Source: Alphaproteobacteria bacterium
GTDB taxonomy: Bacteria > Pseudomonadota > Alphaproteobacteria > Bin95
Assembly (NCBI GenBank): GCA_022826185.1
Contig: JAJDVH010000056.1
Span: 1-59,446 of the forward strand
DNA length: 59,446 bases
Direction: 5' to 3'
The first letter of the stretch is position 1; each line of letters starts with the position of its first letter. The translations under genes were made by a program, and so were the position numbers. This document shows, piece after piece, positions 23,084-45,303 of this stretch. The notes beneath the pieces were generated by a model. It did no database searches. It was not told the origin of the DNA and saw only the letters and a program-made list of their open reading frames with translations.

Positions 23084-24577
23084 TCAGCGCCTTATGCGCA
23101 TCAGGAGAAGCAGGGGGAGCGCGGCCAGCGCGACGGCGGTGTAGGCGGTGAAGGCGTTGAGATAGCCGATCATCGCGGCCTGCTGGCCGATCTGGCCGCT
23201 GAGCGCCGCAAGGCCCGACGCCGTGCCCGTGTCGATCACCGCCAGCGCCTCGTTGTAGGGCGAGACGAATTCGGTGAGCCGTCCGTAGTTCTCGCCGCCC
23301 GTGCGCACCAGCACGGTCACGCTCACCGAGATGAAGAAGCTGGAGCCCAGATTGCGCATCAGGTGATAGACGGAGGAGGTCTCCGCCAGGTAGCGCGGCG
23401 GCAGGGTCGAGAAGGTCGCGACCGTGAGCGGCACCCAGGTGACGCCGACGGCGACGCCCTGCATCCAGGAGACCAGCGCCACGTCCCACCAGGTGGCGTT
23501 TGCGTCGAACTGCATCATGATCCAGCCGGACGCCGCCATGATGGAGAAGCCCGCGCTCATGCCGATGCGCGGGTCGAGCCTGCCGACATACATGGCGAGG
23601 AAGAATCCCAGGATCGCGCCCACGCCCCGCGCGGCCACCAGCTGGCCCACCACCGCGTTCGGGAAACCCGCAAGGTCCTGCAGCATCGGCGGCAGCATCA
23701 CCATCGGGGTGAAGTTCAGCATGCCGTATATGCCGACGATGCAGAGCCCGAGCGCATAGTTCCGGTCGAGCAGCAGCTTCAGGTTCAGGAAGGGGCGCCG
23801 GGTGGTCAGGCTGTGGGCCAGGAAGATGTAGAGGCCGATGCCGGCCAGGCAGGCTTCCAGCAGGATTTCGGTGGAGTCGAACCAGTCGCGGCGCTCGCCC
23901 CGGTCCATCATCAGCTGGAAACAGACGACCGCGACGGAGAGCGCGAGGAACCCCGTCCAGTCGAGGCGCGCGCGCCGGAGCCTGCCGCCGTCGGTCAGCA
24001 CCAGCCACATGGCGAGCCAGCTCGCGCCCGCCACCGGCACGACCATGAAGAAGGCCCAGCGCCAGTTGTAGGCCTCGGTAAGATAGCCGCCGACGACCGG
24101 GCCGATCACCGGCCCGACGACGACGCCCATGCCGAACGCGGCCATGGCGGTGCCGTGCTGCGCGCGCGGATAGCTGTCCTGGGTGATGGCCTGGGCGAGC
24201 GGGATGATCGGCGCCCCCGCCGCGCCCTGGATGACGCGGAAGACCACGAGCGACTCCAGCGAGGTCGCGAAACCGCAGCCGAGCGTCGCCGCGCCGAAGA
24301 CCGCCATGCCCCAGAGCATGACCGCGCGGCGTCCGAAGCGGCCCGTCAGCCAGCCCGTCATCGGCGTCACGATGGCGGTCGCGACGATGTTGAAGGTCAT
24401 CGCCCAGGCGATCTGGTCCTGGGTGGCGGAGAGCGAGCCCTGCATTTGCGGCAGCACGGTCGAGACGACGAGCACGGTGGTGCCGTAGAGCGTCGTCGAG
24501 AGCGTCACGGCGGCGAGGATCGACGCCCGCCTGAGCGCCGAAAGGTCCTTGCCGCCGAACTCCTCCTCTCCGTTCAC
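23084..24577 (-). CDS. MFS transporter, DHA2 (EmrB/QacA-like, 14-TMS) family
   Basis: About 497 aa with many TM helices and typical MFS motifs. The GTG start at 24577 forms a GTGA overlap with the upstream SLOG gene. The 616-aa track ORF is an extension. Confidence 0.85.
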   Translation of the reverse strand: MNGEEEFGGKDLSALRRASILAAVTLSTTLYGTTVLVVSTVLPQMQGSLSATQDQIAWAMTFNIVATAIVTPMTGWLTGRFGRRAVMLWGMAVFGAATLGCGFATSLESLVVFRVIQGAAGAPIIPLAQAITQDSYPRAQHGTAMAAFGMGVVVGPVIGPVVGGYLTEAYNWRWAFFMVVPVAGASWLAMWLVLTDGGRLRRARLDWTGFLALSVAVVCFQLMMDRGERRDWFDSTEILLEACLAGIGLYIFLAHSLTTRRPFLNLKLLLDRNYALGLCIVGIYGMLNFTPMVMLPPMLQDLAGFPNAVVGQLVAARGVGAILGFFLAMYVGRLDPRIGMSAGFSIMAASGWIMMQFDANATWWDVALVSWMQGVAVGVTWVPLTVATFSTLPPRYLAETSSVYHLMRNLGSSFFISVSVTVLVRTGGENYGRLTEFVSPYNEALAVIDTGTASGLAALSGQIGQQAAMIGYLNAFTAYTAVALAALPLLLLMRIRR

Positions 24578-25035
24578 GGGGCGAGGACGCGCATGAGGAA
24601 ACGCCGGGCCTCGGTACCGATGCCGGGCGCCTGGCTCTCGCGGGGGCCGGCGATATTGAGCCGGACGACATTGTGCTTGCGCAGCCATGCCGCGGCGGCG
24701 GGCGCCTGCGCGCGGCGCGAGAGGTCGGCGATGCGCAGCGGGCGCCCCGTTCGGCGCGCGATGGCGGCCGTCAGCTTCGTGCCGCCGGTGAGCGGCCCCC
24801 GGCAGAGGATCAGCGTCGCGTCGCTGTCGCGGACATTGAGGCGCGTCCGCACCCGGTAGGCCGCGCTCGCCGTCTCGGCGAGGGGATAGCGCTCGGGGAC
24901 CGGGCCGTCCTCGGCGCGCCGCCCGCGCGGGCACCAGCCGCCGACGGCGAGGCCCAGCGCCAGCGCGGCGTCGAGCCCCGCCCGGTCCACGCCGGTCTGC
25001 CCGCCCGAAACGATCTCCTGCACCGGATGCGTCAT
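24574..25035 (-). CDS. YpsA-like SLOG family protein (formerly 'putative molybdenum carrier')
   Basis: IVSGGQTGVDRAGLDAALALGLAVGGWCPRGRRAEDGPVPERYPLAET...NVRDSDATLIL..LTGGT matches the family consensus as I remember it. It is hidden inside the C-terminal part of the 1065-aa track ORF. Confidence 0.75.
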   Translation of the reverse strand: MTHPVQEIVSGGQTGVDRAGLDAALALGLAVGGWCPRGRRAEDGPVPERYPLAETASAAYRVRTRLNVRDSDATLILCRGPLTGGTKLTAAIARRTGRPLRIADLSRRAQAPAAAAWLRKHNVVRLNIAGPRESQAPGIGTEARRFLMRVLAP

Positions 25036-29964: not shown

Positions 29965-30050
29965 GTCATGCCCGGACTTGTTCCGGGCATCCATGCGGCC
30001 GTTCGGGGGAAGCAACGAAAGTGGATGCCCGGAACAAGTCCGGGCATGAC
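29965..30050. repeat. Perfect 27-bp inverted-repeat pair of the GCCCGGA-N5-TCCGGGC intergenic repeat family (REP/MITE-like)
   Basis: catgcccggacttgttccgggcatcca (29967-29993) is the exact reverse complement of tggatgcccggaacaagtccgggcatg (30022-30048). Each arm also contains an internal 7-bp hairpin. The same sequence produces spurious PGLVPGIH / SPGMT peptides in the ORF track, a hallmark of a repeat family widespread in alphaproteobacterial genomes. Confidence 0.75.
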
Positions 30051-41010: not shown

Positions 41011-41757
41011 TCAGGGCGCGCCGCCGTCCACGCGGATGACGGAGCCGGTGGTGAAGCCACTTGCCTCGGAGGCGAGGTAGAGGGCGGCGGTGACGATCTC
41101 GTCGGGCTCGCCGCTGCGCTGGAGCGCGGCCTCGGCGTTGCGGCGCGTCTCCTCGTCCCAGGCGCGCGAGATGTCGGTGAGGAAGCGCCCCGGCATGATG
41201 GCGTTGACGCGCACCTTCGGCGCATACTCGCGCGCGAACGCCTCCGTCACCGCATTGAGCGCCGCCTTGGCGCCGGCATAGGGCGCAAGCTCCGGGCGCG
41301 GGCGGATGGCGCCGGTGCTGGAGATGTTGACCACCGCCCCGCCCCGGCCCATCGCCATGGCCGTGCCGAGGATCGCCGTCAGCCGGAACGGCCCCTTGAA
41401 GTTGAGCGCGATCACCTTGTCGAACAGCTCCTCCGGCGTTTCGAGCGACGAGGGAGCCAGCGGCGAGGAACCGGCATTGTTGACCAGCACGTCGATGCCG
41501 CCCGCCTCCGCCCAGGCCCGTTTCGCCAGGTCCTCCAGCGCCTCCCAGTCCGAGACGTTGCACGGCATCGCCCAGGCGCGCCGGCCGAGCGCTTCCACCT
41601 CCGCCGCCACGGCAAGGCAGGACTCCTCGCGGCGCGAGACGATGACCGCATCGGCGCCGCGCCGGGCGAAGCCCAGCACCATCTCGCGCCCGAGCCCGCG
41701 GCTGCCGCCGGTGACGAGCACGGTCTTGCCGGTGAAGTCGAACAGCGGATCGGTCAT
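41011..41757 (-). CDS. SDR family oxidoreductase
   Basis: TGGSRGLG, NNAG and YAGAKAA motifs. The start is the ATG at 41757 (MTDPLFDFTGK). Confidence 0.88.
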   Translation of the reverse strand: MTDPLFDFTGKTVLVTGGSRGLGREMVLGFARRGADAVIVSRREESCLAVAAEVEALGRRAWAMPCNVSDWEALEDLAKRAWAEAGGIDVLVNNAGSSPLAPSSLETPEELFDKVIALNFKGPFRLTAILGTAMAMGRGGAVVNISSTGAIRPRPELAPYAGAKAALNAVTEAFAREYAPKVRVNAIMPGRFLTDISRAWDEETRRNAEAALQRSGEPDEIVTAALYLASEASGFTTGSVIRVDGGAP

Positions 41758-42008
41758 GGGCCCGGCTCCGTTCCTTGTCCTCGGGAAACGACATGGCGGG
41801 AAGGTTAAACCCTTTTCCACATGCCGGCCGAGTTCACCGGGATTTGAACGCGGCCCCCCGCCCCGGCATTTGGCGGATTGCGGGACTGTTCCTATCTTAT
41901 GGCCATGCACGGGATCACGGCGAAACATGCGGTGACAACGGACCGATCCGTATGTGGACCGATTCGAACCGCCCCTGCTGAAACCTCGACAATCCGAAAG
42001 GAAGCAGA

Positions 42009-42302
42009 ATGACGACTTCGACACTCAAGGGCCTTGCGGTCGCCAGCGCCGTCGCCGCGGCGCTGGCCATGCAGACCGCCACCCCGGCCGCGGCCGACGA
42101 GAAGGAAAAGTGCTACGGCGTCTCGCTCGCCGGCAAGAATGACTGCGCCGCGGGCCCCGGCACCACCTGCGCCGGCACCTCCACGGTCGATTACCAGGGC
42201 AATGCCTGGACGCTCGTGCCCAAGGGCACCTGCATGACCATGGAGCTGCCGGGAGACCGCAAGGGCTCCCTCGAAGCGCTCGACCGCGACCTTCCGAGCT
42301 GA
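42009..42302 (+). CDS. bufA1: DUF2282 family secreted Cys-containing peptide: bufferin-type (BufA1-like) RiPP precursor
   Basis: A Sec-type signal peptide (...[10 protein letters not shown]) is followed by [43 protein letters not shown], with four Cys in the DUF2282 spacing. DUF692, DUF2063 and DoxX genes follow directly. Confidence 0.85.
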
Positions 42303-42315
42303 GGACGGCGCCGCC

Positions 42316-42344
42316 CGCGTCCCGGATTTCCCTTCCGGGACGCG
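42316..42344 (+). promoter_or_regulatory. Perfect 11-bp-stem intercistronic hairpin between the precursor and MNIO genes
   Basis: cgcgtcccgga (42316-42326), a tttccct loop, then tccgggacgcg (42334-42344). It starts 14 nt after the bufA1 stop. No U-tract follows, so it looks like a partial attenuator or mRNA-stabilising element. Confidence 0.5.
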
Positions 42345-42378
42345 GCCAGCCGGCCCCCTGCCGGACAAGGACCCCGCA

Positions 42379-43236
42379 ATGGACGGCATGGACAGAGGGT
42401 GGAGCGGCCTGCCGCCGAAGGCCGGCGTCGGCTACAAGCCCCGGCATCTCGAAGACATCCTCGCAGCGCCCGGCCCGGTCGCCTGGGTCGAAATCCACGC
42501 GGAAAACTACATGGTGGACGGCGGCCCCGCGATTGCCGGGCTGCGTCGGATCGCCGAGCGGTTCCCGGTTTCCTGCCACGGCGTGGGCCTGTCCATCGGC
42601 TCCGAAGGACCGCTCGACGCCGAACATCTGGGCCGCCTGGCGCGTCTGGTCTCCTGGCTCGACCCCGCCAGCGTTTCAGAACATCTCGCCTGGTCCGGCC
42701 ATGGCGGCGGCTATCTCGCCGACCTGCTGCCCCTGCCCTGCGACGAGGCGACGCTGGCGCGGGTCTCGGACCATATCGACGAGGTGCAGGAACGGCTCGG
42801 CCGCCGCATCCTGCTCGAGAACCCCTCGAACTATCTCGGCTTCTGCTCCAGCACGATGGCCGAGGTCGAATTTCTCGGCGCGGTTGCCGCGCGCACGGGC
42901 TGCGGCCTGCTGCTCGATGTCAACAATGTGCATGTCTCGGCGGTCAACGGAGCCTACGGGGCCGAGGCCTATCTCGATGCCTTTCCGCTGGCCCTTGTCG
43001 GCGAAATCCACCTCGCCGGCCACGAGATCGAGGCGGACGAGGGCGGCGGCCCGCTGCTGATCGATGCGCACAACAATCCCGTCGCCGACCCCGTCTGGAC
43101 GCTCTACGCCCGCGTGCTTGCGCGCTCGGGGCCGCTGCCGACCCTGATCGAATGGGACAATGACGTGCCCGCATGGCCGGTGCTCGCCGCCGAGGCCGCG
43201 CGCGCGGACGCCGTGCTGGCGAAGTGCCGTGCCTGA
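42379..43236 (+). CDS. bufB1: DUF692 / MNIO (multinuclear non-heme iron-dependent oxidase, MbnB-like) family protein
   Basis: VGYKPRHLEDIL...VEIHAENYM...SCHGVGLSIGS...SEHLAW...LENPSNY...DVNNVHVSA...EIHLAGH...LIDAH is the TIM-barrel pattern typical of DUF692. Confidence 0.88.
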   Translation: MDGMDRGWSGLPPKAGVGYKPRHLEDILAAPGPVAWVEIHAENYMVDGGPAIAGLRRIAERFPVSCHGVGLSIGSEGPLDAEHLGRLARLVSWLDPASVSEHLAWSGHGGGYLADLLPLPCDEATLARVSDHIDEVQERLGRRILLENPSNYLGFCSSTMAEVEFLGAVAARTGCGLLLDVNNVHVSAVNGAYGAEAYLDAFPLALVGEIHLAGHEIEADEGGGPLLIDAHNNPVADPVWTLYARVLARSGPLPTLIEWDNDVPAWPVLAAEAARADAVLAKCRA

Positions 43237-43978
43237 CTACCAGAACGCCTTTGCGGACGCCCTGCTCGATCCGGAGAAACCCGTTCCGCCGGACCTTGTC
43301 CGGCCGGACGGGCAGGCGGCGGGCCGGCGCTTCGACATTTACCGCAACAATGTCGTCGTCGCGCTCATCGAGGCGCTGGGAGAGGCGTTTCCCGTGGTGA
43401 GGGCGCTGGTCGGGGAGGAGTTCTTCGAGGCGATGGCGGGCGTCTATGTGCGCGCCCATCCGCCCTCGTCTCCCCGCATGATGTTCTACGGCGAGGGCTT
43501 CGCGGCGTTTCTGGAAACCTTCGGGCCCGTGGAGGGGCTTGCCTACCTGCCCGATGTGGCGCGGCTCGAATATGCCCGCCGGCTGGCCTACCACGCCGCC
43601 GACGATCCCGCCGCCGATCCTTCGGTGCTGGCCGGGCTCGACGCGGATGCGCTGGCGGCGGCCCGCTTCGAGTTGCAGGCGGCCTGCCATATCCTCCGCT
43701 CGGCGCATCCCGTCCATGCGATCTGGCGCTTCAACGCAACGGACGATAAATCGCCCGTGCAATCCGCCGCCGAGGATGTTCTGGTGTCGCGCCCGGAAGA
43801 TATTGTGCTCGTGCAGTTGCTTCCCCCGGGCGGCGCGGCGTTCCTGCAGGCGCTCGGCGCCGGCGAGCCGCTCGGCCGGGCGGCGGAACGGGCCGCTGCC
43901 GAGGCGCCGGAATTCGACCTCGGCAACAGCCTCGCCGGAATGTTCGCCGCCCGGATCGCCAAGTCCATATCGGTGTGA
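43229..43978 (+). CDS. bufC1: DUF2063 domain-containing protein (partner of DUF692; BufC-like)
   Basis: FDIYRNNVVVALIEALGEAFPVVRALVGEEFFEAMAGVYVRAHPP is the typical DUF2063 N-terminal region. The GTG start at 43229 overlaps the bufB stop. Confidence 0.8.
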   Translation: MPDYQNAFADALLDPEKPVPPDLVRPDGQAAGRRFDIYRNNVVVALIEALGEAFPVVRALVGEEFFEAMAGVYVRAHPPSSPRMMFYGEGFAAFLETFGPVEGLAYLPDVARLEYARRLAYHAADDPAADPSVLAGLDADALAAARFELQAACHILRSAHPVHAIWRFNATDDKSPVQSAAEDVLVSRPEDIVLVQLLPPGGAAFLQALGAGEPLGRAAERAAAEAPEFDLGNSLAGMFAARIAKSISV

Positions 43979-43979
43979 A

Positions 43980-44558
43980 ATGTCGGGAGAACCCGCGATG
44001 AATGCTCTCTACCGCCTCGAAGACGCCATACTGGGACCGGTCGGCCGGCTCCTCGACGGCGCGGCCACGCCGGTCCTGGCCCGCCTGGTATTCCTGGCGA
44101 CGCTCGCCACCTTCTTCTGGTCGTCGGCCATGACCAAGCTCGGGGAAGGCGTCGGCGGCATCTTTTCGCTCTCGGCCGGCGCCTATGTGCAGATCCTGCC
44201 CGCGCAGATGGAGGCCGTCGGCTACGACGAATCGCAACTCGGCCTCTTCGCGGACCTGATCGTTCTCGCAGGCACCTGGGCGGAGTTCGTCATTCCCGCG
44301 CTGATCGTGGTCGGGCTGTTCACGCGCGCCGCCAGCCTCGCCATGATCGGCTTCATCCTGGTGATGAGCTTCGTCGATATCGCGGGCCACGGCGCGGACG
44401 CGGCGACGGTCGGCATGTGGTTCGACAATGTGCCGGACGCGAAGATCCTCGACCAGCGGCTGTTCTGGATCTTCCTGCTGCTCATCCCCGTCGCGCGCGG
44501 CGCCGGCCCCGTCTCCCTCGACGCCCTGCTGAGACGCGGCAGCGCACAGGGCCGCTGA
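43980..44558 (+). CDS. DoxX family membrane protein
   Basis: Four TM helices and DoxX-like sequence. It starts 2 nt after the bufC stop. An alternative ATG lies at 43998. Confidence 0.8.
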   Translation: MSGEPAMNALYRLEDAILGPVGRLLDGAATPVLARLVFLATLATFFWSSAMTKLGEGVGGIFSLSAGAYVQILPAQMEAVGYDESQLGLFADLIVLAGTWAEFVIPALIVVGLFTRAASLAMIGFILVMSFVDIAGHGADAATVGMWFDNVPDAKILDQRLFWIFLLLIPVARGAGPVSLDALLRRGSAQGR

Positions 44559-44641
44559 GGGGCGAAGGTGTTCGACCTTGCGCTTATTAGAGGTTGTTGC
44601 CAAGATAGACTGGTCTAAGCGACTGGTCGGAGGCGGTCATT

Positions 44642-44884
44642 ATGGAAACAGTTGGAGCCTACGAGGCCAAGACTCACCTGCCGAAACTGCTTGATCGGGT
44701 GGTGCAGGGCGAGAGCCTCACCATTACGCGTCACGGCAAGCCGGTAGCCAGATTGGTTCCCGTTGCCGGTGATCGCGAACGGGCCCGAGCGGCCGCCGCA
44801 CGTATCTTCGAGCGTCGCCGCCATTTGAAGCTCGCGCCGATGGCGGAGTTGATGGCGTCGGTCCATGAGGGGCATCGTTTTTGA
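44642..44884 (+). CDS. Type II antitoxin, Phd/YefM family
   Basis: VGAYEAKTHLPKLLDRVVQGESLTITRHGKPVARLVP is the canonical Phd/YefM N-terminal fold sequence. Confidence 0.88.
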   Translation: METVGAYEAKTHLPKLLDRVVQGESLTITRHGKPVARLVPVAGDRERARAAAARIFERRRHLKLAPMAELMASVHEGHRF

Positions 44885-45303
44885 CGCCGATTGTTGTCGA
44901 TTGCTCCGTCTTGATGGCTTGGTGTCTGGCCGACGAGGACGAAAACGCGGCAGCCGAGGCTATTCGGAGGATTACCGAAGCAGGGGCCGTTGTGCCGCAG
45001 GTGTGGTGGTACGAACTGCGCAATGCCTTGCTGATGAGTGAACGTCGGGGACGAATCGCCCCTCAAGAGATGGCCGGTACATTGGCCGACTTTGCGGCTC
45101 TGGGCTTCGAGATGGATGGCGAGCACGACGAAGCCGGAATTCTGGCCCTCGCACGCCGTCACACCTTGACAGTCTATGACGCAGCCTACCTTGAGGTCGC
45201 TTTTCGTCGCAGCCTGCCGCTCGCAACGCTCGACCGACGGTTGGCCGAAGCAGCCGCAGCCGAAGGAGTTGCCCTCATCGGGCCTTTCCATCGGAGCCTG
45301 TAA
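44881..45303 (+). CDS. vapC: Type II toxin, VapC (PIN domain ribonuclease)
   Basis: TTGA overlap with the antitoxin stop. The PIN acidic residues are present (VVDCSV..., YELRNAL, DAAYLEVA). Confidence 0.85.
   Translation: MTPIVVDCSVLMAWCLADEDENAAAEAIRRITEAGAVVPQVWWYELRNALLMSERRGRIAPQEMAGTLADFAALGFEMDGEHDEAGILALARRHTLTVYDAAYLEVAFRRSLPLATLDRRLAEAAAAEGVALIGPFHRSL

Follow-up and report, generated by a model that had tools for sequence, protein, structure and literature searches.

A Buf1-type bufferin operon with a hairpin behind its precursor gene in an uncultured alphaproteobacterium

Contig JAJDVH010000056.1 of an uncultured alphaproteobacterium (assembly GCA_022826185.1) carries on its forward strand four closely packed genes, bufA, bufB, bufC, and bufD, which raise the question whether they form a complete operon for a bufferin, i.e., a modified copper-binding peptide, and how the expression of such an operon would be controlled. 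The window analyzed here is the whole stretch of 59,446 nt with a GC content of 69.4%, in which real genes are recognizable by a GC fraction of 0.84–0.93 at the third codon position. An earlier reading of the sequence letters (the original prediction) had proposed that the four genes code for DUF2282, DUF692, DUF2063, and DoxX proteins in the architecture of the buf1 operon. The Pfam and NCBIfam scores, the gene order, the spacing, and a precursor with four cysteines all agree with this proposal, and the features which it named were recovered at, or within one base of, the positions it had given. Taking the evidence together, we consider it very probable that the locus is a Buf1-type bufABCD (captophorin) operon on the chromosome of a high-GC alphaproteobacterium, that it serves a copper-peptide pathway, that a hairpin adjusts the dosage of its products, and that it is controlled in a way different from the SigF-dependent operon of Caulobacter. 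The operon itself is one more member of a very large and recently characterized family (thousands of Buf1 clusters, described 2024–2026) and has little weight alone. The only addition to what is known, and a modestly new one, is a hairpin behind bufA which is conserved clade-wide, together with the diversity of the upstream control regions.

Identity of the operon

For comparison, 80 related genomic loci (L001–L080) were collected via BufB; nine of them (L001–L008 and L010) constitute the close clade of the window, and their bufA upstream regions were aligned with that of the window (alignment A1). The operon has the following parts.

41998–42002, plus strand: Shine–Dalgarno sequence AAGGA of bufA, 6 nt 5′ of the ATG; GAAAGGA is invariant in alignment A1
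42009–42302, plus strand: bufA, Buf1-type bufferin precursor of 97 amino acids; DUF2282 (PF10048), 90.2 bits
42367–42371, plus strand: Shine–Dalgarno sequence AAGGA of bufB, 7 nt 5′ of the ATG
42379–43236, plus strand: bufB, maturase of 285 amino acids, a multinuclear non-heme iron oxidase (MNIO, DUF692); PF05114 (MbnB_TglH_ChrH), 335 bits; NF050167, 365.4 bits
43229–43978, plus strand: bufC, DUF2063 partner protein; DUF2063, 99.3 bits, residues 4–95
43980 or 43998 to 44558, plus strand: bufD, membrane protein of the DoxX family; DoxX, 22.0 bits

The 285-residue protein had been taken for an MNIO of the DUF692 type, and this is what the profiles find, as it also passes the cut-off of 310 bits for the NCBIfam equivalog NF050167 (MNIO_BufB). 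The precursor lies far above the Pfam cut-off for DUF2282 (22.4 bits), whereas BufD falls slightly short of the gathering score of 23.6 bits for DoxX (PF07681); the same profile is matched by all 43 aligned BufD orthologues with a best E-value of 1.3e-10. A DoxX gene in the fourth place is frequent in Buf1 clusters but not required. The most likely start of bufC is the GTG at 43229 (MPDYQ…), which gives an overlap of 8 nt with the bufB stop, and the bufC orthologue of L004 begins at the same point. For bufD an ATG at 43980 follows the bufC stop after 1 nt. Nevertheless, the ATG at 43998 (MNALY…) is the more likely start, judging from the GGGAG in front of it and from the orthologous reading frames of L003, L004, L007, and L010, which begin with MNALY.

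The order bufA–bufB–bufC–bufD is kept in 80 of the 80 related loci, wherever the contig is long enough, and is also found in annotated plasmid loci of Agrobacterium, Burkholderia, Nitrobacter, Escherichia coli, Ralstonia, and Thiothrix. The best 120 matches listed in a search for BufA homologues are all at least 74% identical. Most genome annotations had been said to list the four genes as domains of unknown function; this holds for the plasmid records, which label them ‘DUF2282’, ‘DUF692’, ‘putative DNA-binding domain’, and ‘DoxX’, but not for close BufA homologues, which UniRef names ‘BufA1 family periplasmic bufferin-type metallophore’, nor for BufB, for which the NCBIfam model MNIO_BufB exists. 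BufB homologues are present on 506 plasmid records, including conjugative IncC/IncF plasmids of E. coli and Klebsiella and megaplasmids of Ralstonia, so that bufferin operons are commonly plasmid-borne.

Neighboring families were discriminated by their NCBIfam cut-offs. The window proteins remain below those for BufA2 (20.5 versus 60), HvfB (218.7 versus 360), HvfC (47.9 versus 142), and HvfX (22 versus 80), and BufB remains below those for HvfB, ApyH, MbnB (43.7 versus 325), and ChrH. The oxazolin/HvfABC-type and Buf2 clusters share the MNIO and its DUF2063 partner, with DoxX being optional, but have another type of precursor with EGKCG repeats or with 6 or 12 cysteines. The products of oxazolin, bufferin, and related clusters, copper-binding peptides with 5-thiooxazoles, were proposed in 2026 as the ‘captophorin’ class (PMC13097082). 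The four-gene cluster is also shared by the gig (gold-induced genes) operons of Cupriavidus metallidurans and Legionella pneumophila and by the BvgAS-controlled operon of Bordetella pertussis (cited in PMC11626156). The regulators and inducers of these operons are different, and the beta- and gammaproteobacterial plasmid loci that we sampled have short spacers free of a hairpin.

By its sequence, the locus is thus a complete, standard Buf1 bufferin cluster and a routine member of a large, well-described family.

Precursor, maturation enzymes, and proposed pathway

The closest characterized system is buf1ABCD of Caulobacter vibrioides (CCNA_03363–03366, bufferin 1; PMC11626156), which agrees with the window operon in the four genes and their order, in a DUF2282 precursor with a Sec signal peptide, putative for the window BufA, and a core of 68 residues, predicted in the window, and in the combination of MNIO, DUF2063, and DoxX proteins. 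The cysteines Cys35, Cys46, Cys54, and Cys75 of the window BufA are at least 97% conserved among 78 homologues, and their spacing of 11-8-21 is identical to that of Cys12, Cys23, Cys31, and Cys52 of C. vibrioides BufA1. Inspection and hydropathy of the N-terminus reveal a lysine at position 7, a hydrophobic stretch of Ala, Leu, and Val at residues 8–21 (Kyte–Doolittle values up to 2.4), and the sequence A27-A28-A29 in front of D30. Residues 1–29 therefore resemble a Sec signal peptide, and cleavage of this putative signal before D30 would leave a core D30–S97 of 68 amino acids with a monoisotopic mass of 7078.29 Da. Compared with C. vibrioides BufA1, the window BufA has its first cysteine 6 instead of 12 residues into the predicted core, and its C-terminal tail extends further. 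The part of bufA coding for the signal peptide also contains a perfect 10-bp hairpin (42042–42067, GCCAGCGCCGTCGCCGCGGCGCTGGC), which may merely reflect the alanine codons.

BufB is homologous to the DUF692 structure with the PDB accession 3BWW (E-value 1e-38) and to MbnB. Eight residues, H67, H102, E147, D180, H211, D229, H231, and E258, are at least 97% conserved among 92 sequences. From the residue spacing and the offsets of the alignment ranges to the MbnB chain 7tcr, they correspond to His54, His90, Glu133, Asp163, His192, Asp208, His210, and Glu239 of MbnB, respectively, and these are the iron ligands of that enzyme (PMC9060507). As far as the alignment tells, all eight MNIO iron ligands are intact in BufB. 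PDB searches with the BufA and BufC sequences and with a profile of 60 BufC sequences gave no match and hence did not confirm the RRE-like domain expected at the C-terminus of a Buf1 DUF2063 partner. In the methanobactin system MbnABC an MNIO with the same set of iron ligands likewise acts on cysteines of a ribosomal peptide and makes a copper ligand. The chemistry is different, however, and yields oxazolone–thioamide groups; moreover, the methanobactin precursor depends on a leader and does not use Sec for its export, and MbnC takes the place of the partner protein.

In C. vibrioides the second and the third cysteine of BufA1 are converted to 5-thiooxazoles with a mass shift of −4.03 Da each, and the first and the fourth cysteine form a disulfide (PMC11626156); the 5-thiooxazole assignment has been reinforced since (PMC13097082). 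The peptide is exported by Sec and protects against copper, and BufB and BufC are required, whereas BufD is not (PMC11626156). By homology we suggest the following pathway for the window operon. BufA would be translated with a Sec signal peptide; the iron enzyme BufB together with its partner BufC would oxidize the central Cys46 and Cys54 of the precursor to 5-thiooxazoles, and the outer Cys35 and Cys75 would pair as a disulfide. The core of ∼68 residues would be exported to the periplasm and bind excess copper there. BufD would be an accessory membrane protein, as its counterpart is dispensable in Caulobacter.

Two points speak against assigning this pathway to the window organism with full confidence: modification, export, and copper binding of its BufA are carried over by analogy from work of 2024–2026 on other species, and no metal-resistance gene or metal regulator adjoins the operon. 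The operon could serve another stress, caused by a different metal or by oxidative or thiol chemistry. Homologous gig/buf operons elsewhere respond to gold, cadmium, chromate, or a virulence regulator, a DoxX homologue protects in another context against oxidative or sulfur stress, and in the window no copper genes lie beside the operon. On the contrary, the only direct functional data on Buf1 peptides are copper binding and copper protection, and the Caulobacter buf1 operon is induced by Cu and not by Fe, Zn, or Mn. We therefore regard a role outside copper stress as unlikely, and prefer copper buffering as the function of the window peptide.

Transcriptional control

In Caulobacter the operon depends on SigF, a sigma factor of the extracytoplasmic function (ECF) type, which recognizes the sequence GTAACC-N16-CGAA (PMC3511200). 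It had been noticed earlier that no gene pair for an ECF sigma factor and its anti-sigma factor lies beside the window operon. In fact, a tblastn search with the SigF and NrsF homologues of related loci did not find such a pair anywhere in the 59-kb window (E > 0.2). The GTAACC-N16-CGAA promoter of C. vibrioides is absent upstream of the window bufA as well; the best match has two mismatches and is misplaced.

Ten of the related loci have a GTAACN-N15–17-CGAA motif within 300 nt upstream of bufA. Nine of these (L022, L032, L040, L041, L049, L055, L061, L070, and L074) coincide exactly with those that carry a divergent ECF sigma gene, and eight of the nine have an NrsF-like gene within the available sequence. 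All nine carry an exact GTAACN-N16-CGAA 50–106 nt upstream of bufA and hence the Caulobacter-type arrangement. The tenth match is an exact GTAACG-N16-CGAA 109 nt upstream of bufA in L003, a member of the close clade; the window reads ATGGCC-N16-CGAA at ∼41900–41925. This match is probably due to chance, but it could be a relic of a SigF-type promoter in the window clade.

Another arrangement is found in ∼48 loci of the Rhodobacterales (within L009–L080). Here, a conserved module of ∼100 bp ends ∼80 nt upstream of bufA and comprises tandem TCACG-N4–5-CGTGA dyads, a GTGAC box similar to a −35 element, a GCTAG box similar to a −10 element, and an ATCGC…GCGAT leader dyad (consensus …TTTGTTACA-N6-CTCACGCCCGCGTGATACACGGCCCCGTGAGTGGCAGGTGAC…GCTA…ATCGCC…GGCGA). 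An nhmmer profile of this module has no match in the window or its close clade, and hence the module does not explain the regulation of the window operon. Likewise, the EcfG-like motif GGAAC-N15–17-CGTT does not occur upstream of bufA in any member of the window clade and was rejected, and sigma-54 and MerR-type spacings upstream of bufA were rejected by eye. Since the window has neither the SigF/NrsF pair nor a SigF promoter and nine relatives have an ECF sigma gene together with the promoter, the sequences support the suggestion of the original prediction that the regulation here differs from that of the Caulobacter operon; neither a neighboring SigF/NrsF pair nor a promoter of the SigF type would be in use in the window clade.

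Which elements are present instead can be read from the divergent intergenic region between bufA and the gene of a short-chain dehydrogenase.

41832–41849, no strand: palindrome GTTCACCGGGATTTGAAC, kept in the window and in L001–L007 (alignment A1)
41870–41898, plus strand: candidate sigma-70-type promoter of bufA with −35 TTGGCG (41870–41875), a 17-nt spacer, and −10 TATCTT (41893–41898), identified by eye in alignment A1
41940–41947 and 41956–41963, plus strand: direct repeat GGACCGAT-N8-GGACCGAT, 46–69 nt 5′ of the bufA start codon

The palindrome is a candidate operator; it is better kept than the direct repeat, including in L007 where the repeat is lost. The hexamers of the candidate promoter, which we propose with low confidence, are kept in L001–L007 (TTGGTG and TATACT in L007). 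They score 8 of 12 and thus remain below the threshold of 9 of 12 of a promoter scan that found no sigma-70-like promoter between 41500 and 45000. In addition, a leader block, CCCTGCTGAAACCTCGACAAT, just 5′ of the bufA ribosome-binding site, is better conserved than the repeat, again including L007. Palindrome, −35/−10 pair, and leader block are leads read from an alignment and not findings.

The direct repeat was already part of the original prediction. It is indeed present, but repeats of this kind are as frequent as chance predicts, and only nearly identical genomes share it. One could imagine that it is the site at which a response regulator controls bufA, given two exact 8-mers which extend to GGACCGATNCG, lie close to the start of bufA, and recur unchanged in L001, L005, and L006 of alignment A1. 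However, the window contains 120 repeats of 8-mers at offsets of 8–30 (2.0 per kb), so common that 39% of all 250-nt segments hold one, and a period of 16 bp is atypical for tandem half-sites. Furthermore, L002 has a mutated first copy, an insertion in L003 alters the distance between the copies, and L004, L007, L008, and L010 lack the repeat despite keeping other blocks of the upstream region. We therefore rejected the repeat as a significant feature; it is probably a chance repeat, and a regulator-binding site is very unlikely.

The hairpin behind bufA

The spacer between bufA and bufB folds into two hairpins.

42315–42345, plus strand: hairpin 1, perfect GC-rich stem of 12 bp with a 7-nt loop; folding energy −26.0 kcal/mol
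42350–42364, plus strand: hairpin 2, stem of 5 bp (CCGGC/GCCGG) with a 5-nt loop; RNAalifold consensus on alignment A3

Hairpin 1 begins 12 nt past the bufA stop, and hairpin 2 is located immediately 5′ of the bufB ribosome-binding site. A perfect hairpin of 11 bp at 42316–42344 had been reported before; the structure is real, with a stem one pair longer. Perfect hairpins of at least 11 bp were counted across the whole window, and two were observed, hairpin 1 among them, versus 0.35 expected.

The bufA–bufB spacer could be analyzed in 76 related loci, and in 66 of them 8 bp or more pair in a stem with no interruption. These stems have a median length of 11 bp versus 4.6 bp in dinucleotide shuffles, and their median distance from the bufA stop is 11.5 nt. 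Among spacers of 40–150 nt, stems of this minimum length are found in 88%, compared to 24% of 70 other co-directional spacers from the same loci and 21% of the 90-nt stretches past bufD; for stems of at least 10 bp the Fisher p-value is 1.5e-12. The hairpin sequences of different genera are unrelated. Thus, on the comparative evidence, the hairpin is conserved as a structure and not as a sequence. Across the close clade, hairpin 1 keeps an invariant stem, and its loop differs in both length and sequence; a single compensatory pair, a change from G-C to A-U, is seen in L007. Hairpin 2 has one covarying pair (GC to CG, in L002 and L004) and two with G-U changes.

In the relatives, the 8 nt 3′ of the stem are enriched in T (25% versus 15.5% in the remainder of the spacer, p = 2.6e-4), most strongly where the GC content is lower: T makes up 36% when a locus has less than 60% GC, but 15.5% when it has 65% GC or more. 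At least four T in these 8 nt are found in 12 of the 76 relatives. The hairpins of L064 and L020, with 12–14 pairs followed by CTTTTTTCC or TTTTTAATT, surpass every other terminator-like site of the respective operon region. By their sequence, the hairpins of lower-GC relatives are textbook intrinsic terminators.

Only 33 nt separate hairpin 1 from the bufB ATG, and they are occupied by hairpin 2 and the bufB ribosome-binding site; bufBCD must therefore depend on read-through from the bufA promoter. We suggest that a single promoter drives all four buf genes and that hairpin 1 acts as a leaky intrinsic terminator, as a protective 3′ stem–loop for the bufA segment, or as both. The bufA mRNA would thereby exceed the bufBCD mRNA, as would suit a product needed in stoichiometric and enzymes needed in catalytic amounts. 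That the hairpin could set the ratio of precursor to enzyme had been proposed before; the structural conservation and the canonical terminators of the lower-GC relatives support this idea, and with hairpin 1 the cell would probably produce the peptide in excess of the enzymes.

Intercistronic stem–loops set differential expression within other operons; in Rhodobacter capsulatus the pufBA hairpin does so, and behind nisA and other lantibiotic precursor genes it is a leaky terminator. They resemble the window arrangement in that a GC-rich hairpin directly follows the gene of an abundant small product, catalytic or low-copy genes come next, and read-through is needed. In contrast to them, the window hairpin has no U-tract.

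Several observations count against hairpin 1 as a dosage element or narrow its reach. Its tail, CCAGCCGG, has no T in 8 nt, so that of the two hallmarks of a canonical intrinsic terminator it has the stem–loop and not the U-tract, and because of this a terminator scan from 41500 to 45000 did not flag it. The missing U-tract favors the reading as a stabilizer or as a weak terminator, between which the sequence cannot decide. The 76 loci share ancestry and are not phylogenetically independent. Finally, among the ten fetched plasmid loci in which bufA was detected, only those of Agrobacterium and Nitrobacter have the hairpin, whereas it is absent in eight with spacers of 10–50 nt (Sinorhizobium meliloti, Burkholderia glumae, two E. 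coli plasmids, Ralstonia, Thiothrix, Stenotrophomonas, and Tistrella), including all six beta- and gammaproteobacterial loci sampled. Because of this absence, the post-bufA hairpin is a clade habit and not a rule of the family.

A stronger version of termination, in which hairpin 1 ends transcription completely, bufA is monocistronic, and bufBCD have their own promoter, would fit the folding energy and the likeness to the canonical terminators of the relatives. It is nevertheless hardly credible, as the 33 nt before bufB offer no space for a promoter, none was detected by the promoter scan, the window hairpin has no U-tract, and the four Caulobacter genes are one SigF-driven transcription unit (PMC3511200). 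That hairpin 1 is functionless, produced by the high GC content or left over from a mobile repeat, is the least probable reading of all: the window has 69% GC, GC-rich spacers fold easily, and the z-score of the whole spacer against shuffles is just −2.1 to −2.3, but so few perfect stems of this length are expected, comparable stems of different sequence occupy the same position in the relatives far more often than in control spacers, the close-clade stem stays invariant while its loop changes, and the window holds no further copies of the arms, for which reason a dispersed repeat was rejected.

Hairpin 1 as a leaky terminator or stabilizer remains our preferred explanation, and it can be extended beyond the window. 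For the Rhodobacterales, part of the Hyphomicrobiales, and the window clade, we see an even chance that a selected intercistronic hairpin, joined by a second small one in the window clade, uncouples the dosage of the precursor from that of the maturases by attenuation, by 3′ stabilization, or by both. This would be a previously undescribed post-transcriptional layer, and the searchable bufferin literature does not mention a hairpin, terminator, or stem–loop at the position behind bufA. It would act alongside at least three transcriptional set-ups: SigF/NrsF, the ∼100-bp module of the Rhodobacterales, and another regulator in the window clade.

Genomic neighborhood and other features of the window

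On its 5′ side the operon is flanked by genes for a tripartite ATP-independent periplasmic (TRAP) transporter (DctP/Q/M) and by the divergent gene of the short-chain dehydrogenase. On its 3′ side follow a Phd/YefM–PIN pair and then genes for NIPSNAP, glutathione S-transferase, and homoserine O-succinyltransferase.

44642–45303, plus strand: VapBC-type pair directly 3′ of bufD, with a Phd/YefM antitoxin (44642–44884) and a PIN-domain toxin (44881–45303)

The toxin–antitoxin pair is also present in L003, whereas L002, L006, and L008 have two small genes instead; because of this exchange the spot 3′ of bufD appears variable.

A search of the entire window against Rfam at gathering thresholds gave no match and hence no known riboswitch or small RNA in the leader or in the spacer. 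ARAGORN reports an 89-nt tRNA-Ala(CGC) at 24681–24769 on the plus strand, which overlaps a long open reading frame of the minus strand (23084–24934); Rfam has no tRNA there at the gathering threshold, and the call is possibly a false positive. The strongest perfect hairpin of the window has an 18-bp stem and is located at 2449–2490 (GCCGCTACTCGGCCGGCG…CGCCGGCCGAGTAGCGGC). Two 9-bp hairpins at 29968–29990 and 30025–30047 (ATGCCCGGACTTGTTCCGGGCAT and ATGCCCGGAACAAGTCCGGGCAT) are reverse complements of each other and form a larger inverted repeat in or beside a coding region.

Implications for the bufferin family

The comparison of the loci depicts one cluster family whose transcriptional controls vary between clades, and therefore the inducing signal, copper or another, is not to be assumed from Caulobacter. 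In addition, the hairpin behind bufA suggests that an excess of the copper-buffering peptide over its catalytic maturases is built into the operon. Such a dosage hairpin could guide the design of constructs for heterologous expression as well as the reading of transcriptomes.

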